A stretch of DNA of 64,000 nt from Roseibacillus sp. (GTDB taxonomy: Bacteria > Verrucomicrobiota > Verrucomicrobiia > Verrucomicrobiales > Akkermansiaceae): NCBI GenBank assembly GCA_051251855.1, contig JBPOGI010000006.1, positions 96,001 through 160,000 on the forward strand, given 5' to 3'. The notes beneath the pieces are model-generated. The model was not told where the DNA came from, ran no database searches, and saw only the letters and a list, made by a program, of their open reading frames with translations. Made by a program: the position numbers and the translations under genes. Numbering within the stretch: the first letter of the stretch is position 1; each line of letters starts with the position of its first letter. Shown here in pieces: positions 13,755 through 26,425 of the stretch.

Positions 13755-15044
13755 GTGAGTAGTGAGCAGAATCCCCCCTTGAATTTCGAATGGTCGGAAT
13801 TTGGTCAACGCCTGAGCCAAGGGAGTGGCATCGGGGAGCTCATGACGAATTTGGGTGAAGCGCTGGCGGGCGGGGGTGATGTCAAGATGCTGGGAGGGGG
13901 GCAGCCAGCTCATATTCCTGAGATCGAAGCGGTTTGGCAGCGGCGGTGGCGGGAGCTTGAGGAGGCGGGCGAGCTCCGGAAAGTGCTTGGAAGTTATGAA
14001 GCACCGGCGGGAAACATGGATTTTCGGAAGACTCTCGCAGAGATGTTGCAGCGTGAGTTTGGTTGGGAGGTCGACCCAGAGAACGTTGCGGTGACTGCTG
14101 GTGGGCAGACTGCCTTCTTTTTCCTCTTTAATGCTCTGGCAGGGAAAATGCCGGATGGAAGTCAGCGGAAAATCCTGCTTCCTCTCGTTCCGGAGTATAT
14201 TGGATATGCGGATCAATCGGTGGCAGGGGACCTTTTTCGGGTCTTTCGCCCCAAAATTGAAAAGACGGGTCCACACGAGTTTAAGTACGGCATCGACTTC
14301 GAGGCCCTGAAGGTGGAGGAGGATATCGCCGCCATTTGTGTCTCAAGGCCTACCAATCCCTCGGGAAATCTCTTGCTGGATGATGAGATTGCCCGCTTGC
14401 GGCAGCTTGCGGGGGAGCATGGGATCCCGTTTATTATCGACAATGCCTACGGAGCGCCTTTTCCGAATATCATCTTTGGCGAGGCGACTCCGGTTTGGGG
14501 CGAGGACCTTATTGTCACGATGAGTCTTTCCAAGCTGGGGCTGCCGGGCACACGGACCGGGATCGTGGTGGCCCACCCTGAGATTGCGCGCGCTATTTCT
14601 GAGATGACCGGAATCGTTGGGCTTGCAAACGGCAATGTGGGGCAGGCAATTGTGGAACCCTTGTTAGAGAGCGGGGAACTCCTGAGGCTTTCCAATGAGG
14701 TAATGCGCCCGTTCTACCGCAAGAAGTCACAGCAGGCTCTGGAGTGGGTCGCGGAGTTCTTTCCGGATGAGATGAACTACTTTGTTCATCGCAGCGAGGG
14801 CGCGCTCTTCTTGTGGTTCTGGTTCGAGGGGCTGCCGATTTCATCTAAGGAACTCTACGAACGCTGCAAGGCGCGTGGCGTATTGGTGGTGCCTGGGGAG
14901 TATTTCTTCTTTGAAGAGGAAAAAGACTGGTCCCATGGGCGAGAGTGTATTCGGGTGACCTTCACCATGGATGAGGAGACGGTGCGAGAGGGGATTCGCA
15001 TTATCGCCGAAGAAGCCAAAGCCGCCTACCAACTTGAGTCATGA
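13755..15044 (+). CDS. avtA: valine--pyruvate transaminase
   Basis: MLGGGQPAHIP, PEYIGY, SRPTNPSGN, IDNAYG.PFP, SLSKLGLPG.R. Confidence 0.9.
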   Translation: MSSEQNPPLNFEWSEFGQRLSQGSGIGELMTNLGEALAGGGDVKMLGGGQPAHIPEIEAVWQRRWRELEEAGELRKVLGSYEAPAGNMDFRKTLAEMLQREFGWEVDPENVAVTAGGQTAFFFLFNALAGKMPDGSQRKILLPLVPEYIGYADQSVAGDLFRVFRPKIEKTGPHEFKYGIDFEALKVEEDIAAICVSRPTNPSGNLLLDDEIARLRQLAGEHGIPFIIDNAYGAPFPNIIFGEATPVWGEDLIVTMSLSKLGLPGTRTGIVVAHPEIARAISEMTGIVGLANGNVGQAIVEPLLESGELLRLSNEVMRPFYRKKSQQALEWVAEFFPDEMNYFVHRSEGALFLWFWFEGLPISSKELYERCKARGVLVVPGEYFFFEEEKDWSHGRECIRVTFTMDEETVREGIRIIAEEAKAAYQLES

Positions 15045-16114
15045 AACCTGATACCGGAGCCCTCGTTCGAGCCATTGTCTATAGTGTGGCTTTAGTTTAC
15101 TTGTTCGTGGACTTGTTCGTTCTCAAAGGGCCGCTCTATCGAAGTGTGAAAGATGCCAATCCTCGCAGTGAGAAAGTGATTGCTGAGGAAACGGCGCGCG
15201 GAGTGGCGGCACGGGTCCGTTACCAGCCGATTCTCCTCACTCAAATCGACCGTGCGGTGGAAAAGCGGCTGTGGTCTCGTGGTAAAAGCGCGACAGGTTT
15301 GGAGGGAGAGCAGCTCAAGCAAGAACGTATGGCGGCGCTGAACGAGATGTTTCAGAAGCACCTCTTACGCATCAAGGTGAGGTTCAATGCGGCAGAGTTT
15401 CAGGTGAGCGATGAGGAAGTGGCCGCCGCCGTAAAAACGTTCAAAAAACGCTTCGCTAACGAGCAACTTCTCAAGGGAGCGATTGTCAATCAGGGTTGGG
15501 ACGGGGAAGAAGAGTTGGTTGCGCGCATCCGAGCCAAGCTAGAGCAGGAAGCCTATTTGCGGAAATATGTCGCCGTCGAGGTGACTGAGGAAGAGCTCCA
15601 GGCATACTATCAAGAGCATCGAGCTCGTTTCGCTCTCCCGGAAAGAATCCGAGCGAGGCATATCTTTTTTGCGGCGTTGGAGCATCCTGGAGGGGCCGCC
15701 TTGGCTTTGGCTCAGTCGGTTCGAGATGCCTTGCGAGAAGGTCGTGATTTTAACGAACTATCCGCTGAATATAGTGAAGACCCGGCCACCAAGGAGAAGG
15801 GCGGAGAGCTCGGTTGGATGAGTCGAGGCCGAATGCCAGAGGGTTTAGGGGAACAAGTGTTTCAAATGCAGCCTGGGGCGACGGAGGTTTTGGAGTCTGA
15901 TGTGGGGGCTCATGTATTCGAAGTTCAAGAGCGCAAGCCAGCACGCGAGCGAAGTTTCGAAGAGGTCAAAGATGAACTCGAAGAGGCGTTGTCGAATCAG
16001 CGGCGGGAAGAAGGAACGCAACAATACCTGCGAATTCTTCATCATCGTGATGCCAAAGAACTCGAGATATTTACCGAAGTTCTTGAGCGTCCATGGAGTC
16101 TAACAGATTCTTGA
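15041..16114 (+). CDS. parvulin/PpiC-type peptidylprolyl isomerase (SurA/PrsA-like)
   Basis: ARHIFF, YSEDPATKEKGGELGW; N-terminal TM. Confidence 0.85.
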   Translation: MKPDTGALVRAIVYSVALVYLFVDLFVLKGPLYRSVKDANPRSEKVIAEETARGVAARVRYQPILLTQIDRAVEKRLWSRGKSATGLEGEQLKQERMAALNEMFQKHLLRIKVRFNAAEFQVSDEEVAAAVKTFKKRFANEQLLKGAIVNQGWDGEEELVARIRAKLEQEAYLRKYVAVEVTEEELQAYYQEHRARFALPERIRARHIFFAALEHPGGAALALAQSVRDALREGRDFNELSAEYSEDPATKEKGGELGWMSRGRMPEGLGEQVFQMQPGATEVLESDVGAHVFEVQERKPARERSFEEVKDELEEALSNQRREEGTQQYLRILHHRDAKELEIFTEVLERPWSLTDS

Positions 16115-16183
16115 TGCTGGGGTGAGGGGGTGGCATCTCAAGGCAATGATTTTTTCTTAAGACAAAAAAGATGAAGAAAGGGG

Positions 16184-16210
16184 TTGACCCAAATCATATT
16201 AATCTATAAC
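16184..16210 (+). promoter_or_regulatory. candidate sigma70 promoter of the RNA locus
   Basis: TTGACC-N15-TATAAC; spacer is short. Confidence 0.4.
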
Positions 16211-16265
16211 TCTTCTCGAACGCCGCCGCAGGAGCGGTCAAACCAGAAGGAGGGAATTTTCCATC

Positions 16266-16493
16266 ATGAACGATTTAAGCCATATCAAAACCAACTCGCT
16301 CGCAGCGGCCCAAGTGCACTGTTATCGCGGGATGTCCGGTTCGTTGATTGGCGGCATAGATGGCCTCCGGATTCAACCGACAGGGAATGCAAATGCGTTG
16401 AGTGCAAGACTCAGCTGGGAGAATGGCTCCAAAGGGATGCCCGCATTTGGTACCGAACTGAGCGAGAATAAACTGGCAAGCAGGATTACGTAA
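16266..16493 (+). CDS. putative leader peptide (uORF) of attenuator
   Basis: AGGAGG upstream; last codons and stop lie inside the antiterminator stem. Confidence 0.55.
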   Translation: MNDLSHIKTNSLAAAQVHCYRGMSGSLIGGIDGLRIQPTGNANALSARLSWENGSKGMPAFGTELSENKLASRIT

Positions 16494-16552
16494 ATCACTG
16501 ATTCATAAGGATTTTTACGGCCCTGCTTCCCCCACGGAGGCAGGGCCTTTTT
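16475..16552 (+). promoter_or_regulatory. transcription attenuator (antiterminator + intrinsic terminator)
   Basis: Terminator GGCCCTGCTTCC/GGAGGCAGGGCC-TTTTT (16519-16552); competing stem AAGCAGG..CGTAA (16478-16493) pairs with TTACG..CCTGCTT (16515-16528). Confidence 0.7.
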
Positions 16553-16609
16553 GTATTTAACCATTTAGAAGAACCGAGAAATTGAAATAAGAACGAGAAA
16601 GGGAGAGCT

Positions 16610-17972
16610 CACCCAGGTTGTCGCAATTGCGATGACGACCTGCGATGCGCAGACCCTGAAAACGAATTTGAAAGACAGAACCTGAAAAAGAAGAACCGCC
16701 GCCAGCTGTAACTGGCGACGGCTCCGACAGCACCACCGGACGGAATCCGATGAATCAACTGCGCAAGATGATTCTATCTAAGATGATGTTTCGGTCAAGA
16801 AAGACTTAACTTCACAGATAAGTGAAGGCAGGGAATTCATGTGCTCATTTTCAGGCCCAAAAGGCTTGTTGGAAGATGTGCCAAAGGAAACATCGAAAGG
16901 TCCGCCGAGAAATCCCCGCGGCCACGGTTCGAGAGAACGGTGACGGTGTTTGTTCCTAGAAAATGAATGGAACAAGGACATTCCTGTCCTTGTTCTATTT
17001 TGGAAGGAGCAGGCCTTTGTGGTTTGCTCCTCTCCAAATCGAAGTTCTCTGGAGTTGGAGCACGTCTTACGTTGAGGCGTCGCATGCTCATGCTCACAGA
17101 GGATTTCGATTTGGAGTTATCTGAATGGCGGTCTGGCGTCATGAGATAGGCGTGTCGAAAGGCACGTAAAGGGGCAGCAACCCTGTCTGCCCGCCTTCTT
17201 CCCTTTGGGGAGAAGGACAACCAGACAAACCTAGTTCCAATGACTTCGCGGCCGGCAGCTGCGGAGTGATGCTGGAAGATGGGAGATGCTCCATTGCGGA
17301 CGGCAAGTGCTCAAGCAATGGTGGGTGTAGCAACCCACAGAGTCTTTACGCCAAACATCGACAGTTGAGAACGAAGGGGAGTCACCGAGTGCGAAGCTTA
17401 GCGGCCAAGAGCCCGGTGGCAGTCCAGTGGTGCGGGAAAGGAGACGAGTCTTTCAAACTCGAAACCTCTCCCTAGTCGCGAAGACCGTAACGTCTGTAGC
17501 AACGGACGGGACAAGAGGCGTGTGGAATTTTGTTGTTGAAAAGGCAACGGACCCACCGGACGCACGCGTCTCATAGAAGGGTATCGGATAGTACGAGAGG
17601 AAATCCACCAGACTTTAGATCTGTTCCAAACGCAAAGATGCGTCCTTGATTGTGTGAAAATGGCTTAAGCCCTGACCAAATTTTGGAATCAGGGTCTGAC
17701 GGGACTCGCAAGGTCCCCGAGGATTGATGGAATGCCGCACGGTGGAGTAGCTCTCCTTCATGGCCCAGCCGGGTCGACGGTAGGTTGAACATCGAGAAGC
17801 ACAGTCAGAAGGGAGTGCCGCCACTTCCTCACCAAAGGCAGTCAGGTAGGAATACAAAGGGTGGGCCTCTAGCGCCCTCCTTTGTGGAAGACTTGGGAAG
17901 GTGAGCCGTCGCTGGCTCGCGATAATCCAAGGCGAGTTCCTATGTGCGAGGGTGTCCTTCTCAACCCTTGCT
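16610..17972 (+). ncRNA. large structured ncRNA, GOLLD-like (boundaries approximate; may be more than one RNA)
   Basis: No credible ORF over ~1.3 kb; dense hairpins with G-U pairs and GNRA-type loops; lies immediately 5' of a tRNA array. Confidence 0.6.
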
Positions 17973-17991
17973 ATCTATTTTCTAACAATGT

Positions 17992-18067
17992 GGGAGCGCA
18001 TGTGCCAGAGGGGCGATGCTGCCTTGCAAGCAGCGTGTGGCGGGTGCAAGTCCCGTCACCTCCACCA
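17992..18067 (+). tRNA. tRNA-Ala(TGC), atypical
   Basis: GCTGC-CTTGCAA-GCAGC; G3:U70; T-loop TGCAAGT; ACCA; two acceptor mismatches. Confidence 0.75.
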
Positions 18068-18075
18068 ATTTTTCT

Positions 18076-18151
18076 AGCGGGGAGAGTGTTGGTATCTCAA
18101 GAGGGTCTCATACGCCCTCGTCCGTGGGTTCGATTCCCACCTCCGCAACCA
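18076..18151 (+). tRNA. tRNA-Met(CAT), initiator-like (1:72 mismatch)
   Basis: AGGGT-CTCATAC-GCCCT; GTGGG-TTCGATT-CCCAC; ACCA. Confidence 0.8.
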
Positions 18152-18160
18152 TTTCTAAGG

Positions 18161-18234
18161 GGCGCGCAAACATTATGGTGATGTGCCTGACCTCCAATCA
18201 GGAAAACGGAGTTCGAGTCTCCGGCGTGCTACCA
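18161..18234 (+). tRNA. tRNA with TCC anticodon (Gly-like; C33 and A73 atypical, identity uncertain)
   Basis: GGCGCGC/GCGTGCT acceptor; CCTGA-CCTCCAA-TCAGG; TTCGAGT; ACCA. Confidence 0.65.
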
Positions 18235-18244
18235 ATTTTTCAAA

Positions 18245-18318
18245 GGTCCATTGATGTAAAAGTAGCCTCCCTGTCTGTCGAACAGGTTGAGCCGGAGCAT
18301 TACCGGCATGGACCGCCA
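18245..18318 (+). tRNA. tRNA-Asp(GTC), atypical T-loop
   Basis: GGTCCAT/ATGGACC; CCTGT-CTGTCGA-ACAGG; GCCGG-AGCATTA-CCGGC; GCCA. Confidence 0.8.
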
Positions 18319-18327
18319 TTTTCAAGT

Positions 18328-18404
18328 GGGGACCATGGTGTAACGAGTAAGCATCCGGCACTGTGAACGCCGCGGAATGGGTGCAAGTCCCATTGGTCCC
18401 CCCA
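18328..18404 (+). tRNA. tRNA-His(GTG)
   Basis: G-1:C73; loop CTGTGAA; T-loop TGCAAGT; CCA. Confidence 0.85.
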
Positions 18405-18415
18405 ACTTTTGGAAA

Positions 18416-18491
18416 TGTCCTCGACGGAGCTAGTGAACCGGACGGTTTGCAAAACCGATCATGCGGGGGGCGGAACCCCGGAGGACATCCA
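18416..18491 (+). tRNA. tRNA-Cys(GCA), atypical T-loop
   Basis: TGTCCTC/GAGGACA, U73, CCA; CGGT-TTGCAAA-ACCG; T-loop GGCGGAA. Confidence 0.75.
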
Positions 18492-18502
18492 TCTTTCTAA
18501 AT

Positions 18503-18575
18503 TCCAGCGTGGCGGAAAATCGCGCCGCTCTTGTAAAGCGGATGATGCAGGCAACCAGTCCTGTCGCTGGATCCA
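18503..18575 (+). tRNA. tRNA-Thr(TGT), atypical
   Basis: TCCAGCG/CGCTGGA; CCGCT-CTTGTAA-AGCGG; 8-nt T-loop CAACCAGT; TCCA. Confidence 0.7.
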
Positions 18576-18585
18576 ATTTGACAAT

Positions 18586-18660
18586 TCTTCTGTCGTCCAA
18601 AGGCGAGGACACCAGGCTACGAACCTGGAGATGCGAGTTCGAGTCTCGCCGGAAGTACCA
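18586..18660 (+). tRNA. tRNA-Arg(ACG)
   Basis: CCAGG-CTACGAA-CCTGG; GCGAG-TTCGAGT-CTCGC; ACCA. Confidence 0.85.
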
Positions 18661-18673
18661 TTCTCATGAGAAC

Positions 18674-18747
18674 GCGGGCTTGGTGTAAAAGAAGCACATC
18701 TGTTTTACATGCAGATCGAGGGGGTGCGATACCTCCAGCCCGTACCA
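18674..18747 (+). tRNA. tRNA-Val(TAC)
   Basis: GCGGGCT/AGCCCGT; TCTGT-TTTACAT-GCAGA; T-loop TGCGATA; ACCA. Confidence 0.8.
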
Positions 18748-18753
18748 ACTTTC

Positions 18754-18841
18754 ACGAAGTGTTCCCACCACGGTCTTCTAAGCCGTCGACGATAAACTGT
18801 GGGCAGGATGTCGAGGGGTTCGAGTCCTCCACTTCGTTCCA
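18754..18841 (+). tRNA. tRNA-like RNA with TCT (Arg) anticodon: no D arm, 8/4 acceptor/T stems, large variable region
   Basis: ACGAAGTG/CACTTCGT-T-CCA; ACGGT-CTTCTAA-GCCGT begins only 8 nt after the acceptor; GGGG-TTCGAGT-CCTC. Confidence 0.65.
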
Positions 18842-18846
18842 TTTTT

Positions 18847-18919
18847 GCCTGCGTAGCCCAACGGAAGAGGCGCCCGGCTTAGAACCGGTTCAGTGTGGGT
18901 TCGACTCCCTCCGCAGGTA
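18847..18919 (+). tRNA. tRNA-Leu(TAG), short variable loop, CCA not encoded
   Basis: GCCTGCG/CGCAGGT; CCGG-CTTAGAA-CCGG; TTCGACT. Confidence 0.8.
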
Positions 18920-18928
18920 CTTTTCTAA

Positions 18929-19002
18929 TTCCATGTAGCCCAACTGGTAGAGGCTCTCGACTTAAGATCGAGCAAGTGTCAGTTCGACTCTGACCATGGA
19001 AA
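18929..19002 (+). tRNA. tRNA-Leu(TAA), short variable loop, CCA not encoded
   Basis: TTCCATG/CATGGAA; CTCGA-CTTAAGA-TCGAG; GTCAG-TTCGACT-CTGAC. Confidence 0.8.
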
Positions 19003-19008
19003 TTTTCA

Positions 19009-19098
19009 GGAGTTCGAACCGGACAAGCGAGCCGGTCGCGTTTGCTAAACGCTGAGTTGCCATTTGGTAAAGGGGTGCAAGTCCTCCGAGCTCCGCCG
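19009..19098 (+). tRNA. tRNA-Ser(GCT), 8/4-type
   Basis: GGAGTTCG/CGAGCTCC, G73; GCGT-TTGCTAA-ACGC; long variable arm; 4-bp T stem; ends CCG. Confidence 0.75.
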
Positions 19099-19105
19099 TT
19101 TTTTA

Positions 19106-19193
19106 GGAGGGTGCCGCTAAGTGGCTGGCAACTGGTCTTGAAAACCAGGGTAGGCATTGCGTCCTAGGGGTTCGATTCCTCCACCCTCCGCCA
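19106..19193 (+). tRNA. tRNA-Ser(TGA), 8/4-type
   Basis: GGAGGGTG/CACCCTCC-GCCA; CTGGT-CTTGAAA-ACCAG; long variable arm; GGGG-TTCGATT-CCTC. Confidence 0.85.
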
Positions 19194-19196
19194 ATC

Positions 19197-19271
19197 ATCC
19201 CAGTCGTCTAATTGGTAAGACGCCCCGCGCCGAGCGGGGAGATGCCGCTTCGAAGTCGGCCGGGGAATCCC
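19197..19271 (+). tRNA. degenerate tRNA-Arg(CCG)-like
   Basis: Canonical D arm GTCT-AATTGGTA-AGAC; CCCCG-CGCCGAG-CGGGG (G33); weak acceptor; ends TCCC. Confidence 0.55.
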
Positions 19272-19277
19272 TTTTCT

Positions 19278-19352
19278 GGGTCTGTAGCTCAATTGGTAGA
19301 GCAACCGGTTTTTACCCGGTCGATGCGGGTTCGAGACCCGACAGACCCACCA
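19278..19352 (+). tRNA. tRNA-Lys(TTT)
   Basis: GGGTCTG/CAGACCC-ACCA; ACCGG-TTTTTAC-CCGGT; TTCGAGA. Confidence 0.9.
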
Positions 19353-19361
19353 ATTTTCAAC

Positions 19362-19517
19362 GCTCCTGTCAGCTATGGGTAGGCTTTCGCACTTTCACTG
19401 CGGCAAACCGGGTTCGAATGCATTTCTTGGTTACAAGACATTCTGAACATCCAGCTCGGGGCGAGCTGCATACCGCATGGACCTGAAGGATGAAGGTCAA
19501 TCCCGGCAGGAGTACCA
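19362..19517 (+). tRNA. tRNA-Glu(TTC) interrupted by an 82-nt insert in the T-loop
   Basis: GCTCCTG...TCGCA-CTTTCAC-TGCGG...CCGGG-TTCGAAT [19420-19501] CCCGG-CAGGAGT-ACCA. Confidence 0.8.
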
Positions 19518-19524
19518 ATTTTCT

Positions 19525-19599
19525 CGGGGGGTAGTTCAATGGGAGAACGCGCGCTTTGGAAGCGTGAGGTTGTCGGTTTGAGTCCGGCTCCCCCGACCA
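19525..19599 (+). tRNA. tRNA-Pro(TGG)
   Basis: CGGGGGG/TCCCCCG-ACCA; loop TTTGGAA; T-loop TTTGAGT. Confidence 0.85.
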
Positions 19600-19607
19600 C
19601 TTTTAAT

Positions 19608-19768
19608 TCCCGGATAGCTTAATCGGCAGAGCACTCGACTTTGACTCGAGCAGTGTGGGTTCGATTGCCCTCGCTCCGCTCATGCCATGCGATGTCCAGT
19701 TTCCTCCTCCGGAAACTGAGAAATTCGATGCGCATAAATGTGCGGAAGCATTCCCACTCCGGGCACCA
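19608..19768 (+). tRNA. tRNA-Gln(TTG) interrupted by an 86-nt insert in the T-loop
   Basis: TCCCGGA...CTCGA-CTTTGAC-TCGAG...GTGGG-TTCGATT [19667-19752] CCCAC-TCCGGGC-ACCA. Confidence 0.8.
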
Positions 19769-19789
19769 ATTTTAACCAAACATGAAACA

Positions 19790-20383
19790 ATGATAACACT
19801 AGTAAAAGCGAAAGACCTTCGCCCCATCTTGGAGACGGAACGTCTTCTCTTGCGTCCCCTTGAAATGAACGATGCTGCCGACGTGCGTCGCCTAGTCGGT
19901 GATATTCGTGTGGCCGAAAATCTAGGGCTTGTTCCGCATCCCTATCCAGAGGGACTGGCGGAAGAATGGATTTCTGGTCAGAGAGCAGAATATGAAGCGG
20001 GTAGGCATCTCACTTTTGCGATTACTACCAAAGCAACTAACGAACTGATGGGAGTAATCAGCCTTCATCCCAAAGAAGATCTTCTTCGCGCGTCAGTTGG
20101 TTACTGGGTTGGCGTTCCCTATTGGGGAAACGGCTACACCACGGAGGCTCTCAAGGAGATGCTCCGATTTGGCTTTGACGACTTTGCCCTGCAAAGAATC
20201 TTCGCTACTCACTTTGTCACCAATCCTGCTTCGGGCCGGGTGATGGAGAAAGTGGGGATGCAGCTCGAAGGCGTGATGAAGCTGGGTATCTCAAGATTTG
20301 GGGTGCTGCGCGACAGTATGCAGCGAGCGATCATCAAACCCGATTGGGAACGCCAGCGACAGGCGGAAGAACTTTACTGCTAG
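19790..20383 (+). CDS. GNAT N-acetyltransferase, RimJ/RimL family
   Basis: LETERLLLRP, VGYWVGVPYWGNGYTTEAL, NPASGRVMEKVGM; start moved to ATG 19790 because the longer ORF overlaps tRNA-Gln. Confidence 0.9.
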   Translation: MITLVKAKDLRPILETERLLLRPLEMNDAADVRRLVGDIRVAENLGLVPHPYPEGLAEEWISGQRAEYEAGRHLTFAITTKATNELMGVISLHPKEDLLRASVGYWVGVPYWGNGYTTEALKEMLRFGFDDFALQRIFATHFVTNPASGRVMEKVGMQLEGVMKLGISRFGVLRDSMQRAIIKPDWERQRQAEELYC

Positions 20384-20455
20384 ACCGTGTCGTGTGTGAA
20401 AGCGGCGGGTGGGCACTTTGCCAGCCCACTCGCCGCAAACCCATTTAACTTACCA

Positions 20456-21220
20456 ATGAATAAAAATAGAAATGAGCAGAGGCGTTTGAAATCAGAACGT
20501 CTGGAAACGCGAGACAAAGTGATTCTTGCCCTTGAACGAGAGCGCCGAGATTTGTGGAACCAGCTCCGGAAAGCTCCTTTGGAAGAACTGAAGGAGCCTT
20601 ATCAAAAAGGCTGGGAGCGGTTCTTTGTTCTCAGCGAGCAGGCGAAGCGGAGAAAGGATGCCGAGAAGCTAGAATTGGCCCTTTCCCTTATTCGGAATTA
20701 TCAGCGCTGTTCCGTGAATCCATTTCGACACTATCGCTACAAGAGCAAGCGCATGGTGCCATGGGAGCACAATTTGAGTGGATTAAGAGCGAGAGCTTTT
20801 CTATCTCAACGGACTTCCGAGGAGGTCATGCAATACTTTCGAGTGCGTCTGCGTGAGCCTTTGACTCGAGAGCGAGTTCGAGAATTGGTTCGTTCAGGTT
20901 GGCAGGGAAAATTTTGGTTCCGCTACCCTGAGTATGCGGTTTCTCAAGTGCAGCCATTTATGATCACACACTGCCGCGTAGCTTTGCCCGAGGTGGAGAG
21001 CCGCTTGTCTGAAGTAGAGGCGACCCTTCGAAAAGATGGTAACGAATATCGGCTTCGCCATCTCAAGGATTGGGGCTTTAGCTGTTGGCGTCGGATGGAT
21101 GAAAGGGCTCAAGAAATGAAGGAGGTGCCGCTGATTCGGAGAGAGATTGAAGAAGCGATCTTTGACTTCGAAAGTAAGCAGGAGCCTAGCTACTGGTGTC
21201 CCGTTCTTTTTCTCAATTGA
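20456..21220 (+). CDS. basic hypothetical protein
   Basis: Arg/Lys-rich ORF in the operon; LKEPYQKGWERFFVL motif. Confidence 0.75.
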   Translation: MNKNRNEQRRLKSERLETRDKVILALERERRDLWNQLRKAPLEELKEPYQKGWERFFVLSEQAKRRKDAEKLELALSLIRNYQRCSVNPFRHYRYKSKRMVPWEHNLSGLRARAFLSQRTSEEVMQYFRVRLREPLTRERVRELVRSGWQGKFWFRYPEYAVSQVQPFMITHCRVALPEVESRLSEVEATLRKDGNEYRLRHLKDWGFSCWRRMDERAQEMKEVPLIRREIEEAIFDFESKQEPSYWCPVLFLN

Positions 21221-21542
21221 AGGAGAACGCGACGTCAGTGGCTGCGCTGTGAGTTGCAATACCACGCTTTAAACTAGGAACAAACACCAGGGGATTTCGG
21301 CGGAGCTTTCGATGGGTTCTTTGACTCTGAAACGAGCAGTAGAAAACCCAAGAAATGCAGAAGAGAGCAGCATCAGTGAGAAGAAGAATCCGGCATTTAC
21401 TGGAGAAGAAAGAGAAGCAGAAAAAGAAGATTCAACCCGAGTCTCCCCGCGAGAAAACCGACTATGAACAATCGCCAGTGAATCAAATCACGGTGAGGAC
21501 GATAGAGGGTTTTTGGGGACAGCAATAAGAAGAGAAAAAGAG

Positions 21543-22142
21543 ATGAACACCGTAATGAATAAGAGCGTCGTGCTCGTGCTAAACAGGCACTGGCAAGCCG
21601 TCAATGTCACCACCCCCGCGGAGGCCTTTGCTTCCATGATGACCGATGCCGCGACAGGCTTGGATATTCGAGGGGAAGACTGGATGGTTCCGGTGAAGTG
21701 GCAGGATTGGGTCCAGTTGTCTGTTCGAGAAGGAGACTTCTCGGTAGGGACGGTGGACGGTCAGGTGCGCGTTCCGACGGTGATTGTCTTGAGTCGTTTT
21801 GACCGAGTGCCGCGCAAGCGCCTCAGTTTCTCTTTGCGTGGTCTTTGGCTGCGGGATGGGGGACGGTGTCAATATACCGGACGTTCTCTCCGGCCAGAGG
21901 AAGGCAATATCGACCACGTCATTCCTCGCTCGCGCGGGGGAGAGACTTCTTGGGAGAACTGCGTGCTTTCTGACCGCAAGGTGAACAACCGGAAAGCAGA
22001 CCGGACCCCGGAAGAAGCGGGCTTACGCCTGAATTCCGATCCGGTGCGTCCTCCGGAAGTGCCCGTCACCTATTTGCTGCGGAATCCGTTCCAAATTGCA
22101 GATTGGGAGGTCTTCCTCCCTGAACGCTCGGAAGAAAATTGA
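21543..22142 (+). CDS. HNH endonuclease
   Basis: VLVLN, RDGGRCQYTG, NIDHVIPRSRGG..SWENCV....VNNRK. Confidence 0.92.
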   Translation: MNTVMNKSVVLVLNRHWQAVNVTTPAEAFASMMTDAATGLDIRGEDWMVPVKWQDWVQLSVREGDFSVGTVDGQVRVPTVIVLSRFDRVPRKRLSFSLRGLWLRDGGRCQYTGRSLRPEEGNIDHVIPRSRGGETSWENCVLSDRKVNNRKADRTPEEAGLRLNSDPVRPPEVPVTYLLRNPFQIADWEVFLPERSEEN

Positions 22143-22224
22143 TAAAATCTCGACCAACTTCAAGGCAAGTGGACCTGCAGGGAATTCCCGGAACGGTCTC
22201 CACGCATCGGCTCGATGGTCGAAC

Positions 22225-22329
22225 TCTGAAGTAGCTCAGATGGTAGAGCAACGAACTCATAATTCGTCGGTCACGGGTTCGATCCCCGTCTAACAAAACA
22301 AGCCCCTTTCGCTCCAGATTGCTTCGGCA
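22225..22329 (+). pseudogene. tRNA(CAT) (Met/Ile2) with missing or displaced 3' acceptor strand
   Basis: Perfect D, anticodon (ACGAA-CTCATAA-TTCGT) and T arms to 22289, then no complement to TCTGAAG until CTTCGGC at 22322-22328. Confidence 0.7.
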
Positions 22330-22430
22330 GTCAGCTCGAACTTGGCCCAGCGAATCACGCCGCTCCTCAGTCCCGAATGTTTCCGGATGAGTGACGCGAT
22401 GATTCCCGCCGGGAAAGAGTGGAGTGGGGG
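22303..22430 (+). ncRNA. unidentified ~130-nt structured RNA
   Basis: Closing stem CCCC..CGCTCCA/TGGAGTG-GGGG; GATTGC-TTCG-GCAGTC hairpin; AATCA-CGC/GCG-A-TGATT stem. Confidence 0.45.
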
Positions 22431-22469
22431 AGGCTTACAAATTTAACCCCAAAGAAAGAAAAAGAAGAA

Positions 22470-23237
22470 ATGAATGAATGGATGATCGTAGCAGTGGTTG
22501 TCGCAGTGGCGGCCGCTCTTGGAATGGTGAAAGTGATCCTAGGCAACCGCCAGAAGGTGATCGTGAATAGTTTTGAGAAGGCCCTCATGTTCTACAATGG
22601 CAAGTTGGTGAAAGAGCTGGAAGCGGGTGAGACCGTTTTCTGGGGTCAAGGATACGAAGTGAAACGTGTCGATGGCCGTTGGCAGGAGTTGGTGGTGCAA
22701 AGCCAAGAATTCCTGACCGCCGACCGAGCTTCCGTGAAGGTGAGCGGAGTGGTGCGTTTTCGCGTGGCGGATGCGCTGAAGTATTTCGGCGAATCCCAAG
22801 CGCCTCTCGTGACCGTTCATACCGCGACTCAGATGGCACTGCGTGATGTGGTGGGAAGTCTGGGCGTGGAAGCGGTGCTGGAGCGTCAAGACGGTCTCGG
22901 TGATCGAATGAAGGCTCTGGTTGCGGCCCCAGCGGAAGCTCTTGGAATCGAAGTCAACGCTGTCGTGGCGCGTGACCTGATGCTCGCCGGTGACCTGAAG
23001 AAGGCCTACCAGGCGACTTTGAGCGCGAAACAAGAAGCTCTCGCAGGACTTGAAAAGGCCCGTGGCGAGGCGGCTGCTATACGTGTGAAAGCGAATGCTG
23101 CCCGGGTTTACGAAAAGAACCCTGCCTTGCTGCAACTCGAAGCTCTCGAGACCGTGGCGAAGCTGGGGGACGGAATGAACAACCATCTGGTGCTTGGATC
23201 ACTCGATTCCTTGCTGAAGATGGTGAAAACTGAATGA
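22470..23237 (+). CDS. SPFH/band-7 (slipin-like) membrane protein
   Basis: N-terminal TM; QEFLTADR, QMALRDVVG, LEKARGEAAAIR..ANAARV..NPALLQL. Confidence 0.88.
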   Translation: MNEWMIVAVVVAVAAALGMVKVILGNRQKVIVNSFEKALMFYNGKLVKELEAGETVFWGQGYEVKRVDGRWQELVVQSQEFLTADRASVKVSGVVRFRVADALKYFGESQAPLVTVHTATQMALRDVVGSLGVEAVLERQDGLGDRMKALVAAPAEALGIEVNAVVARDLMLAGDLKKAYQATLSAKQEALAGLEKARGEAAAIRVKANAARVYEKNPALLQLEALETVAKLGDGMNNHLVLGSLDSLLKMVKTE

Positions 23238-23302
23238 TAGAAAAACTGGGGACGCCTCGCCGTGAATGCTGCGGGGCGTCCCTTACAAACTTTTGAAAAA
23301 CA

Positions 23303-24877
23303 ATGAGCCTGATTGGACAGGAAGAATTAATTGAAGCGGGTTGGGAACCTGGTCCGCACTTTGGAGAGATGATCGTGAAGCTGCGTGAATATGAAGAGCG
23401 TGGTATTTGCGATAAGAAGTATTTGCTCAAGCTGTTAGCGAAGGACTTTGGGGAACCAGAGCCTAAGTTGGCGATGCGTCCTGCGCCGGTGAAGTGCGCG
23501 GAAGCGATTCGTCCCGAGAACGATGAGGAGAAGGAGAATGTGTCGAGAGTTCGTCAGAAGATGAGCGAGCTCTTGAAGGTTCCCGTGATTTCTCAAGGGG
23601 CGGTGATGCCCGATGCGTGTCCGGCGGGAATGCATGAAGCGACCATTCCGGTGGGCGGGGCCATTGCGGTGGAAAATGCGATCATTCCAAGCGCGCATTC
23701 AGCGGATGTTTGCTGCTCCATGTTTGCCTCTTTCTACGTGGAACGCAGTAGTGTCGCCAGCGAGCTGGATGCTTTGACGGCGGCGACTCGTTTCGGTCCC
23801 GGTGGTCGTCACTATGACCACTTGGTGGAGCATACCGTGAATGAGGAAGACTTTTGGTCGAATCCGTTTTTGAGCGGGTTGAAGGACTACGGACGCATTC
23901 ACATGGCTGACCAAGGGGACGGGAATCACTTTGCCTACTTGGGTGAAGTCGAGGTGACCTCTGATGTTGTGAGCAAGCTGCACTTGGCTGGATATGGCGC
24001 GCTTGCGGATCAGCTTTCGGGTTCTGGAGAGAATCAAGAGACGCTGCGTCTTCGCGTTCTGGTGACTCATCATGGGTCGCGAGGATTGGGAGCGCATCTC
24101 TATAAGCGAGGTCAAAAGGCGGCTTTGAAGCAAACCGACAAGGCAGCGCGAGGGGTTCCTTCGGCAGCGGCGTGGTTGGATGCGCGCAGTGATGACGGCC
24201 GTGCTTATTGGGAGGCTTTGCAATATGTGGGTCTTTGGACTCGTGCCAACCACGAGGCTATCCATGAGCGTTTCTTGAACAACATCGGAGCGGAAAAGCT
24301 GGCGAGCTTTGGCAATGAACATAACTTCGTGTGGAAGCGTGGGGATGTCTTCATGCATGGCAAGGGAGCGACTCCAGCTTGGAAAGACTCCGATGGGCGT
24401 CCGCTGTTAGGATTGATTCCGCTCAATATGGCGGAGCCGATTCTGATGGTGCTGGGCGGCGACCAGAGCGAGTTCCTTTCCTTTGCTCCTCACGGTGCCG
24501 GCCGAAATGTTTCCCGAACCAAGTTGCGTGGTCGTTACGGCGACGAGGCCACTCGTCAGAATGTGATTGCGCATCATACCCGGGACATCGACGTGCGCTG
24601 GTATTGTGGTAAGGCGGACCTGAGCGAAACTCCGGTGGCCTACAAAAATGCCGACCAGGTGAAGGCGCAGATTCAGGAATTCGGCCTCGCGGAAATCGTG
24701 GCTGAGATTCGTCCTCTGGGATGCATCATGGCCGGCGAGAGCCCTCGGATGGATTGGAAGAAGTATCGCAAGGAGCAGTTAAGTCCGAAGCAGAAGCGTC
24801 AGATTCAGCATCGTGCGGAGCGACGTAAGACCAAGCAAGGTCTCGGGAATTGGGACGAGCCCGATTCCTTAGATTGA
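23303..24877 (+). CDS. rtcB: RtcB family RNA ligase
   Basis: MPDAC, IPVGG, ADVCC, GDGNHF, THHGSRG, HNF, HGKGAT, HGAGR, AYKN motifs. Confidence 0.92.
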   Translation: MSLIGQEELIEAGWEPGPHFGEMIVKLREYEERGICDKKYLLKLLAKDFGEPEPKLAMRPAPVKCAEAIRPENDEEKENVSRVRQKMSELLKVPVISQGAVMPDACPAGMHEATIPVGGAIAVENAIIPSAHSADVCCSMFASFYVERSSVASELDALTAATRFGPGGRHYDHLVEHTVNEEDFWSNPFLSGLKDYGRIHMADQGDGNHFAYLGEVEVTSDVVSKLHLAGYGALADQLSGSGENQETLRLRVLVTHHGSRGLGAHLYKRGQKAALKQTDKAARGVPSAAAWLDARSDDGRAYWEALQYVGLWTRANHEAIHERFLNNIGAEKLASFGNEHNFVWKRGDVFMHGKGATPAWKDSDGRPLLGLIPLNMAEPILMVLGGDQSEFLSFAPHGAGRNVSRTKLRGRYGDEATRQNVIAHHTRDIDVRWYCGKADLSETPVAYKNADQVKAQIQEFGLAEIVAEIRPLGCIMAGESPRMDWKKYRKEQLSPKQKRQIQHRAERRKTKQGLGNWDEPDSLD

Positions 24878-24883
24878 TGGACG

Positions 24884-26425
24884 CTAATCCCGAGTGCCGC
24901 GGGGATCCTTTTTGGGGACCTTGAGTTCTGTCCGAAGACGCGTGAGCTCTTTTTCGAGAGTCTTGCGCGTTTCAGCATAGCTCGGGTCCTCAAAAACGCT
25001 CTTCAATTCATGCGGATCAGTTTGGAGGTCGAAGAGTTGCCAGTAGTCATCGGGCTTGTAGAGATGGACCAGTTTGTAGCGGTCGGTAATGACGCCATAG
25101 TGGCGTGGCACGCTGTGGACGCCGGGAAACTCGTAGTAGTGATAGTAGAAGCTCTTTCGCCAGTCTTCGGGTGTTTCTCCCTTGAAAAGAGGAAGCAGGC
25201 TTTGGCCCTGCATGTGGCTGGGGACGGGAATGTCGGCGGCTTCGAGGAAGGTTTCGGCGAAGTCCAAGTTGGAAACGATGTCTTTGTTCACGCTGCCGGG
25301 CGCAATGACGTCGGGCCAGCGCACGAGGAGAGGTGTTCGCACCGATTCTTCATAAATCCAGCGCTTATCAAACCAGCCGTGCTCGCCAAGGTAGAAGCCT
25401 TGGTCGGAGGAGTAAACGACGATGGTGTTTTCTCCTAAACCAGATTCGTCCAAATAGTCTAACAGTTTTCCCACGCTGTCATCGACGGAAGCAATGCAGG
25501 CCAAGTAGTCGTGCATGTAACGTTGATACTTCCAGCGAACCAATTCTTCTCCTTCGAGATTGGCTGCTAAGAATTTCTCGTTACGAGGTTGATAGTAGGC
25601 GTGCCATTGGTCGCGGACGGACTTGGGAATGCTGCTGTTGATTTTCAGTTTGAGGTCGCCCTCATGCATGGTCTTGGCGAGGGACATGTCTTGGTTTCGT
25701 TCGCCGGGGCCACGGCCTGAGTAGTCATCGAAGAGTGTCTCTGGTTCGGGGTAAGGTTTGCCGTTATCATGATCGAGTTTGTCGACGTGGGGCGACCAGT
25801 TGCGATGGGGCGCCTTGTGCTGGCACATCAGGAGAAAGGGTTTGGAGGGGTCGCGTTTTTCCTTCAACCATTCCAGACTGAGGTCGGTCACGATATCGCT
25901 GACGTAACCCTTTTCGCGAACGTCTTCTCCATTGAGAATCATCTTGGGGTTGTAGTATTGCCCTTGGCCGGGGAGGACTTGCCAGTGGTCAAAACCGGTG
26001 GGAGAGCTGCCCAAGTGCCACTTGCCGATGACGGCGGTTTGGTAGCCGTTGGCTTGTAGCTGTTTGGGGAAGGTGACTTGCGAGCCATCGAATTTGCAGC
26101 CGGCATTGTCGACGAAGCCGTTGATGTGATTGTAGGTGCCGGACATGATGGTGGCCCGGCTGGGTCCGCAGATGGAGTTCGTTACAAGGCAACGGTCGAA
26201 GCGCATCCCTTCCTTGGCGAGGCGATCAATGTTGGGAGTTTTGTTACGGTTCGAGCCATAGGCGCTGATGGCTTGGTAAGCGTGGTCGTCCGAAAAGATG
26301 AAGACGATGTTGGGCTGCTCCTTGGCGACGAGTAAGCCACTAGAGGCGAAAGCGAGTAAGGCGCTACTCAGGACGGCTAAAGAGGATCGAAAGAAAGAAG
26401 AGCGAGGAATCATCCCTATGAGCAA
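24884..26425 (-). CDS. sulfatase
   Basis: [34 protein letters not shown]. Confidence 0.95.

Follow-up and report, generated by a model that had tools for sequence, protein, structure and literature searches.

Related systems

Supernumerary tRNA arrays, the large GOLLD RNA and the RNA ligase RtcB have all been described in other bacteria, and here we compare these systems with a locus of the marine verrucomicrobium Roseibacillus sp. in which all three occur side by side. The locus spans positions 16170-24877 of a stretch of 64,000 nucleotides (nt) of contig JBPOGI010000006.1 (the window; all coordinates count from its first letter) and comprises, with every element on the + strand, a promoter-like box, a leader open reading frame (ORF), a terminator, a GOLLD-type RNA, 19 tRNA-like units, genes for a GNAT acetyltransferase, a basic protein and an HNH nuclease, a tRNA-like element, and genes for an SPFH protein and RtcB. 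Taken together, the evidence presented below makes it probable, if well short of certain, that this module is a chromosomal, long-resident operon of Akkermansiaceae-type Verrucomicrobiales that responds to translation stress and RNA damage under the control of a ribosome-dependent leader-peptide attenuator. Statements from the literature refer to the excerpts of the cited papers that were consulted.

In Anabaena sp. PCC 7120, antibiotics that target the ribosome induce a tRNA (trn) array, the adjoining HNH gene all8564 and rtcB (PMC8421152), and deletion of TrcR raises the levels of RtcB, two HNH proteins, two GNAT proteins, and a pair consisting of a hypothetical protein and a slipin (PMC10272220). 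Furthermore, Verrucomicrobia are among the phyla listed with long tRNA arrays (L-arrays; PMC8421152). Like Anabaena, the window carries a same-strand supernumerary tRNA array beside an HNH gene; on the Anabaena plasmid pCC7120delta, we confirmed an HNH gene followed by 24 tRNAs, and the HNH cores are 41% identical between the two systems. The TrcR regulon likewise contains RtcB, HNH, GNAT and a slipin/SPFH protein with a hypothetical partner, with RtcB, GNAT and slipin matched by family description; regulon and locus are compared by function only. Both systems also have short Leu tRNAs, of 74 nt in the window and 75-78 nt in the Anabaena plasmid array (L081 4326-4862; handles of this kind denote the loci and genomes used for comparison). 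However, the Anabaena genes are scattered over chromosome and plasmid and repressed at operators by the ribbon-helix-helix protein TrcR, whereas those of the window form one block behind a leader and terminator. Moreover, the HNH similarity is confined to the catalytic core, and the excerpts of PMC8421152 make no mention of GOLLD.

GOLLD, which forms 14-mer RNA cages, has been described as a phage and prophage RNA near tRNA islands (PMC12286853, PMC12990946), and tRNA clusters of Mycobacterium contain GOLLD together with an HNH gene (PMC6582537). The window resembles these loci in that a large structured RNA abuts tRNA genes with an HNH gene in the cluster, and in some of its relatives (L012 and G144) a tRNA lies inside the GOLLD linker. 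It differs from them in its GOLLD match of 116 bits against a cut-off of 150, in a conserved 5' domain of ~850 nt that brings the RNA to ~1.3 kb in total, in its chromosomal, non-phage setting within Verrucomicrobia, in its position behind a putative attenuator, and in its linkage to RtcB, SPFH and GNAT. No paper connecting GOLLD with Verrucomicrobia was found in the literature searched, and the consulted excerpts of the GOLLD literature hold no mention of RtcB.

Regarding the control of RtcB, two further systems are relevant. In Pseudomonas aeruginosa, the RtcB-like gene armZ is under the leader peptide PA5471.1, and attenuation upon ribosome stalling has been proposed (PMC12057347). The window shares with it a short leader ORF and one or more terminators upstream of an RtcB-family gene, as well as the proposed read-through when ribosomes stall. 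However, the leader sequences are unrelated, ArmZ is a MexZ anti-repressor from another branch of RtcB, and tRNAs, GOLLD and HNH are not involved. RtcR and sigma-54 control the rtcBA repair operon of Escherichia coli and Salmonella (described in PMC10272220), which provides an RtcB ligase that is induced by damage to the translation apparatus. In contrast, the window locus lacks RtcA and RtcR, and the RtcB subfamily, the type of regulator and the companion genes all differ. In the literature searched, the Pseudomonas review alone links rtcB with leader-peptide attenuation, and no description of the attenuator of the window was found.

A preliminary description of the locus, made from the letters of the DNA, had regarded the combination of its elements as undescribed. 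This needs to be narrowed: GOLLD with a tRNA array and HNH (PMC6582537), L-arrays in Verrucomicrobia (PMC8421152) and the leader-controlled armZ (PMC12057347) are in print, and the kit itself as well as each of its pairwise links is already known. What is new is the attenuator family, its control, as we read it, of a GOLLD-type RNA that is chromosomal and outside a phage context, and the joining of all parts of the kit in a single operon.

A conserved leader with a putative ribosome-dependent attenuator

The leader region at the 5' end of the module contains the following features:

16170-16210, + strand: promoter-like box, consisting of GATGAAGAAAG, then TTGACC (16184-16189), then TATAAC (16205-16210)
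16266-16493, + strand: 75-codon leader ORF; AGGAGG precedes its ATG by 10 nt
16478-16484, + strand: putative antiterminator strand AAGCAGG, which copies the 3' arm of the terminator and is complementary to CCTGCTT of the 5' arm
16519-16553, + strand: intrinsic terminator with a 12-bp stem (16519-16547), a 5-nt loop and a T run

A short ORF thus lies between a promoter-like box and an intrinsic terminator, ahead of the genes of the module, which is the arrangement expected of an attenuator. The terminator is conserved in sequence, beyond its mere shape, in 25 other loci found via RtcB, and in the window genome, which has a single terminator copy, no second copy of the attenuator was found. The promoter-like box is kept in the window, L003, L005 and L010, its TTGAC motif aligns in most leaders, and it may well act as the promoter of the module.

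The leader ORF is conserved in its position. ATG-started ORFs of 28-88 codons have their stop 26-37 nt 5' of the terminator stem in 28/28 loci, and the leader ATG aligns across groups of loci. The final leader codons copy the 3' arm of the terminator as GGAAGCAGG, GCAGGGT or GGAAACAGGG, depending on the group, and this upstream copy varies group by group, in step with the terminator's 5' arm. The AGG of the antiterminator strand is an in-frame codon in 23/28 loci and, in a second sample, in 21/28 loci, 10 of them repeats of earlier loci; like the ORF counts, these numbers describe relatives and are not probabilities. It is worth noting that AGG is the rarest Arg codon of the genome (5.4% of Arg codons), and that in the window it lies at 16482-16484, 3 codons ahead of the TAA that ends the leader ORF.

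The putative competing pairing would overlap the translated part of the leader, as predicted from the ORF; its strand is conserved and varies with the terminator arm, but its energetics are only modestly above those of shuffled sequences. As the antiterminator strands of all groups could not be aligned in register by MAFFT, the energetics were determined for each sequence instead. When transcripts end short of the 3' arm, the fraction of the 5' arm that is paired upstream is 0.82, compared to 0.58 in shuffled sequences. The attenuator that had been proposed in the preliminary description thus gains support, as leader ORF, terminator and putative antiterminator strand are all conserved, and leader and terminator together look like an uncatalogued cis-regulatory family.

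Read as an attenuator of the trp type, the leader would operate as follows. Transcription would start at the conserved promoter-like box. Under healthy translation, a ribosome at the end of the leader would cover AAGCAGG, the terminator hairpin would form and transcription would stop. If ribosomes were slow, stalled, scarce or not loading, AAGCAGG would be free to pair with the terminator's 5' arm, and the polymerase would read through into the module, the elements of which would then be co-transcribed in response to stress. The read-through RNA would be cut by tRNA-processing enzymes into the GOLLD-type RNA of ~1.3 kb, the divergent tRNAs and the mRNAs, with the 3' end of the GOLLD-type RNA presumably set by cleavage at the first tRNA.

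A giant GOLLD-type RNA with two domains

Downstream of the terminator, two domains of a large non-coding RNA were delimited:

16657-17512, + strand: 5' domain of ~850 nt, conserved among GOLLD-bearing loci (nhmmer)
17513-17967, + strand: 3' domain, matching GOLLD (Rfam RF02032) over the full model (positions 1-416) with 116.3 bits and E ~1e-31

Since the score of the 3' domain lies below the Rfam gathering score of 150, we call it a divergent GOLLD homologue and not a curated member of the family; among 7 GOLLD matches in genomes of the family, only that of G144 exceeds the gathering score (153.1 bits). The 5' domain is kept in every other GOLLD-bearing verrucomicrobial locus that was fetched, with nhmmer matches in L005, L092, L093, L094, L012 and L091. 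Compensatory changes were found at 52 of the 123 predicted pairs of the 3' domain and at 65 of the 164 predicted pairs of the 5' domain (7 sequences each), counts that are descriptive and were made without a phylogeny-aware test. A protein-coding reading of 16560-17970 was also considered and rejected: ORFs on both strands appear equally "conserved" with L005, reflecting the 85% nucleotide identity, as expected of non-coding DNA. Together, the sequence conservation, the compensatory pairs and the non-coding pattern indicate that the giant non-coding RNA is real, with two domains and a length of ~1.3 kb. The large RNA of the preliminary description is thereby confirmed and assigned, with a match over the full RF02032 model and a conserved region of ~850 nt upstream of it. 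The first tRNA-like unit begins 22 nt after the GOLLD match.

As a side observation, the nhmmer matches to the 5' domain in L003 (5226-5668) and L002 (3588-3902) are partial and lie ahead of tRNA arrays, and in these two loci the Rfam GOLLD 3' domain was not detectable.

An old second set of tRNAs and a tRNA-like element

The GOLLD-type RNA is followed by a dense array of tRNA-like units, and a further element of this kind lies between the protein genes:

17990-19682, + strand: 19 tRNA-like units, identified by ARAGORN, Rfam and folds
19361-19518, + strand: interrupted tRNA-Glu(UUC) of the array, with an ~80-nt insert in the T-loop region (~19420-19498)
22230-22291, + strand: tRNA-like element without acceptor stem; the D, anticodon and T arms are present (model positions 6-65 of Rfam tRNA, 50.9 bits)

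The units of the array are, in this order, Ala, Met, Gly, Asp, His, Cys, Thr, Arg(ACG), Val, a long-arm unit (UCU), Leu(UAG), Leu(UAA), Ser(GCU), Ser(UGA), Arg(CCG), Lys, the interrupted Glu, Pro and Gln, a count that agrees with the 19 tRNAs reported earlier. Default ARAGORN called 10 of them, relaxed ARAGORN and Rfam added 4 (Ala, Thr, Arg(CCG) and Gln), and the other 5 (the Asp-, Cys- and Ser(GCT)-like units, the long-arm UCU unit and the interrupted Glu) come from a reading of the folds and not from a tRNA finder. By reading of the sequence, ~14/19 units end in an encoded CCA.

Elsewhere in the genome, there are ~40 dispersed housekeeping tRNAs, which include one of the same anticodon for 18/19 array units. 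The identity between the two is 49-75%, with 37% for the interrupted Glu, and this degree of divergence argues for a second, old set of tRNAs and not for recent copies. In its layout and occurrence, the array agrees with L-arrays: 19 close-packed units on the same strand within 1.7 kb, added to a dispersed set, with an HNH gene as neighbour and a patchy occurrence among relatives. The Leu units (18847-18920 and 18929-19002) are 74 nt long each and devoid of a long variable arm, while the housekeeping Leu tRNAs measure 82-88 nt. The unit with a long variable arm (18754-18840), whose anticodon loop was read as UCU (Arg), received no ARAGORN call and only a weak, tRNA-Sec-like match in Rfam (25.5 bits).

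Interrupted tRNAs, in the plural, had been part of the preliminary description; one of them, Glu(UUC), was confirmed, and no others were. Its insert is predicted to form a long helix (-57.3 kcal/mol, z -2.55) and is lineage-specific: the orthologous units of L001 and L005 lack it. We also considered it as a repeated element, which was rejected, as it is present in a single copy and no second one was found in the genome.

The tRNA-like element without acceptor stem is kept between the HNH and SPFH genes in 10/10 aligned loci (the window, L001, L002, L005, L007, L010, L020, L032, L041 and L055). Its anticodon loop, CAU in the window, is not conserved across loci. It might serve as a signal for processing or stability, or be bound as a ligand by one of the proteins.

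Protein-coding genes of the module

Five protein-coding genes complete the module:

19655-20383, + strand: GNAT acetyltransferase (Acetyltransf_3, RimJ/RimL-like; PF13302, E 4.8e-32)
20387-21220, + strand: conserved basic protein, an ORF of 277 amino acids (11-sequence alignment with 16 invariant columns)
21513-22142, + strand: HNH nuclease (PF13395/PF01844), with a conserved N-terminal VLVLNR.W domain
22419-23237, + strand: SPFH/Band 7 protein with an N-terminal hydrophobic helix (PF01145, E 1.2e-20)
23303-24877, + strand: RtcB RNA ligase (phage-like subfamily, basic tail at the C-terminus; PF01139, E 8e-36)

The GNAT, HNH, SPFH and RtcB genes had already been recognized in the preliminary description, and all of them score above the Pfam cut-offs. 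With 124.6 bits against a cut-off of 27 (PF01139), this is particularly clear for RtcB, the motifs of which include D135xxC138, GDGNH (205-209), HGSRG, H340 and HGAGR (397-401). In RtcB of Pyrococcus horikoshii, the metal-binding and guanylylated residues are, as we take it, D95, C98, N202/H203, H234, H329 and H404. The corresponding residues of the window protein are D135, C138, N208/H209, H256, H340 and H397, based on alignment to 4dwr/1uc2 and on motifs, with H340 (for H329) and GDGNH 205-209 (for N202/H203) placed by motif only. Judged by its sequence, the ligase has retained intact catalytic motifs.

The HNH protein matches PF13395 with 37.2 bits against a cut-off of 22, and the residues D134, H135, N149 and N158 of its DH...N...N core are invariant in 25 sequences. 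For SPFH, the likely start is at 22470. The likely start of GNAT is the ATG at 19790, with homologues of 183-210 amino acids, and its matches to RimJ/RimL are weak. A further in-frame ATG, at 19682, adjoins the last tRNA (Gln) directly at its 3' end, while the homologues suggest the start at 19790 instead.

The ORF of 277 amino acids is not named in the preliminary description, and it encodes a real conserved protein, the likely start of which is the ATG at 20456. Only 15 relatives were found among 5.8 billion proteins, and the protein is confined to the module. No family was found for it in Pfam, NCBIfam, PADLOC or PHROGs, and there was no usable Atlas match. AlphaFold2 predicts a coiled-coil hairpin and a beta-rich core with a predicted local distance difference test (pLDDT) score of 78, for which a Foldseek search against the PDB returned no match at E <= 0.001. 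The matches obtained with VIA-align were dismissed as uninformative, since they are helical-hairpin look-alikes with Z <= 8.8 over 52-112 residues.

Synteny and genomic setting

Two samples were used to follow the module across genomes. The first consists of 80 RtcB loci, all from Verrucomicrobiota, 67 of which have at least 1.5 kb upstream. Among these 67, an HNH gene lies directly upstream on the same strand in 27, the terminator motif was found in 24, and 18 have at least one tRNA. The usual layout is leader/terminator, tRNAs, HNH, optionally the tRNA-like element and SPFH, optionally GNAT, and RtcB, with the basic protein sometimes located 3' of RtcB. The arrays vary from 0 to 13 ARAGORN-called tRNAs, of which His is the commonest, followed by Met or Gln.

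For the second, independent sample, a covariance model of the attenuator was searched against 151 genomes of the family, which represent 20 genera (E <= 0.001). Matches were obtained in 67/151 genomes and 16/20 genera, although weak ones may be ordinary terminators. Of the best 29 non-own attenuator loci that were fetched, 24 have a tRNA, HNH, GNAT, SPFH or RtcB gene within 1.5 kb downstream. In 2 genomes (G010 and G027), terminator, GOLLD and tRNA (with or without GNAT) are found at one place, and terminator, optional tRNAs, HNH and RtcB at another. From this arrangement, it appears that one kind of switch serves both units, which in the window are fused behind a single copy.

Among cultured strains, Roseibacillus persicicus KCTC 12988 (L005) has the entire block, and GOLLD, tRNAs, HNH and RtcB are present in Oceaniferula spumae NT6N (L012). 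The preliminary description had named a lack of conserved synteny among the findings that would refute its proposal of one module, and synteny is indeed conserved in many Akkermansiaceae-type genomes.

In the window, the module is enclosed by two genes:

15041-16114, + strand: peptidyl-prolyl isomerase (PPIase), upstream flank
24884-26425, - strand: sulfatase, convergent with the module, downstream flank

The co-orientation of all elements between these two genes and the lack of integrase or phage genes, both stated in the preliminary description, were borne out: each listed element was found on the + strand, and the 26 ORFs of at least 120 amino acids at 3-38 kb of the window contain no integrase, transposase or phage structural families. 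The G+C content of the module is similar to that of its flanks. Furthermore, an aminotransferase-PPIase flank is common to the window genome, L003, L005 and L010, which, together with the lack of mobility genes among the ORFs inspected, argues for a long residence at one chromosomal site. Separately, two neighbouring genes with type VI secretion Hcp domains (PF05638; 29880-30392 and 30415-31293) were noted ~5 kb downstream of the module.

Alternative explanations

Several observations weigh against an attenuator-controlled operon. With regard to the leader, the -35- and -10-like boxes are spaced by only 15 nt and were not reported by a sigma-70 promoter scan, the leader peptides are barely conserved, and several leaders lack a visible Shine-Dalgarno sequence. 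The ORF and frame counts are not independent, as the loci are relatives. For the best antiterminator duplex, z is -1.4 at the median, and 30-80 out of 300 shuffles reach its level at many loci; moreover, a G+C-rich terminator arm pairs easily with many partners. Within the module, the gap of 290 nt before HNH (21221-21512) could hold an internal promoter. A search for RNA sequencing runs that contain the 8.75-kb stretch returned none. Across genomes, 37 of the 67 RtcB loci have neither HNH nor the terminator motif, by the definitions used here, and GOLLD and long arrays are patchy, being limited to 7/151 genomes (including the window genome) and 4/20 genera. In combination with the phage-like character of RtcB and HNH, this patchiness means that parts of the cargo may have been imported.

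The latter points lead to the alternative that survives best, although we consider it unlikely: the locus could have begun as a mobile tRNA array unit of a phage or plasmid, since domesticated or in decay, in which GOLLD, tRNAs, a homing HNH and RtcB arrived jointly as a cassette against tRNA-cutting defence and now persist as largely cryptic cargo, with HNH serving the spread of the unit. RtcB fits phrog_1075 (259.6 bits) far better than the best cellular model of NCBIfam (93.6 bits), and 502 phage records contain relatives. Similarly, the best family of HNH is a phage family (phrog_16726, E 1e-24), and relatives of this nuclease are found on plasmids of Nostoc, Acaryochloris and Mycobacterium. 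The array tRNAs are, at 37-75% identity to the housekeeping set, no recent duplicates, GOLLD and long arrays are patchy, and in the literature, such arrays are regarded as products of horizontal transfer and their HNH as a homing enzyme (PMC6582537, PMC8421152, in the excerpts consulted). However, no integrase, transposase or phage genes were found at 3-38 kb, the G+C content resembles that of the flanks, and three other genomes share the chromosomal flank. Furthermore, the identities of HNH and RtcB drop together across genera, and in many genomes with 0-1 tRNA, HNH and RtcB stand behind the host-type attenuator, which would be unexpected for a selfish homing gene.

A second alternative, which we regard as rather improbable, takes the leader ORF and terminator as an independent small gene or small RNA, with GOLLD, tRNAs and protein genes expressed from promoters of their own, so that the adjacency would carry no regulatory meaning. 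The strength of the terminator (12 bp and a T run), the 290-nt gap before HNH and the modest excess of the antiterminator energetics over shuffles would all be compatible with it. However, the terminator lies ~20-90 nt from the first downstream gene in L019, L020, L030, L116 and L119. In L019, the order is terminator, ~20 nt, tRNA-His, 25 nt, RtcB, and in L030 and L116, the terminator ends ~45 nt before HNH. Such spacings of ~20-45 nt leave little room for another promoter, so that read-through would be needed, and they further strengthen the attenuator reading. In addition, it is the terminator arms and their upstream copy that are conserved and not the peptide, and the element recurs specifically before this gene set (24/29 loci).

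Least probable of all is that HNH and RtcB form a damage-and-repair or defence pair, in which HNH would act on nucleic acid as an effector triggered by stress or phage, and RtcB and the spare tRNAs would limit or reverse the self-damage. In many loci, the two genes are direct neighbours or share a few bases, and HNH has weak PADLOC matches to PtuB (E ~1e-3). However, PADLOC gave only Cas9-type and weak PtuB matches, all to the HNH core, and none for the other five proteins, and the ends that His-Me finger nucleases produce are usually 3'-OH and 5'-phosphate, on which RtcB does not act.

Implications for the biology of GOLLD and tRNA arrays

If the module is the attenuator-controlled stress operon that we favour, its products would act on a failing translation apparatus. 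RtcB would reseal RNA ends with a 2',3'-cyclic or 3' phosphate and a 5'-OH, the GNAT protein may act like an acetylase of ribosomal proteins, and the SPFH protein may provide a membrane scaffold. Spare divergent tRNAs, a ligase for cut RNA, a ribosomal-type acetylase and a membrane scaffold would fit a response to damage of the translation apparatus. This functional reading agrees with the experiments in Anabaena, where translational stress lifts the repression of array, HNH, rtcB, GNATs and slipin together. The inducible module for tRNA supply and RNA repair envisaged in the preliminary description is therefore supported in part, by architecture and analogy, with its function being a prediction. 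Furthermore, the same families are dispersed and repressor-controlled in Anabaena, and gathered and, as we read it, attenuator-controlled in another phylum, which argues that tRNA array, HNH, RtcB, GNAT and SPFH constitute a recurring functional kit and not a chance neighbourhood.

To our knowledge, GOLLD is one of the largest bacterial RNAs, without a known function, and has been seen mostly in phages. In the locus described here, a GOLLD-type RNA lies beside an RNA ligase and spare tRNAs, in what is probably a single operon that resides stably on the chromosome and has its own putative on/off switch. More tentatively, GOLLD might be a cellular RNA that is made on demand when translation fails, switched on together with spare tRNAs and RtcB by a new class of ribosome-sensing attenuator. 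The cage RNA could then cooperate with this kit, for instance if it held, shielded or presented tRNAs or damaged RNAs while repair takes place, and the acceptor-less tRNA-like element and the basic protein could be further parts of it. As two non-pathogenic strains available in culture (KCTC 12988 and NT6N) carry the locus, when GOLLD is made, and with which partners, is a directly testable question. If this proposal is true, GOLLD would be more than a phage accessory.

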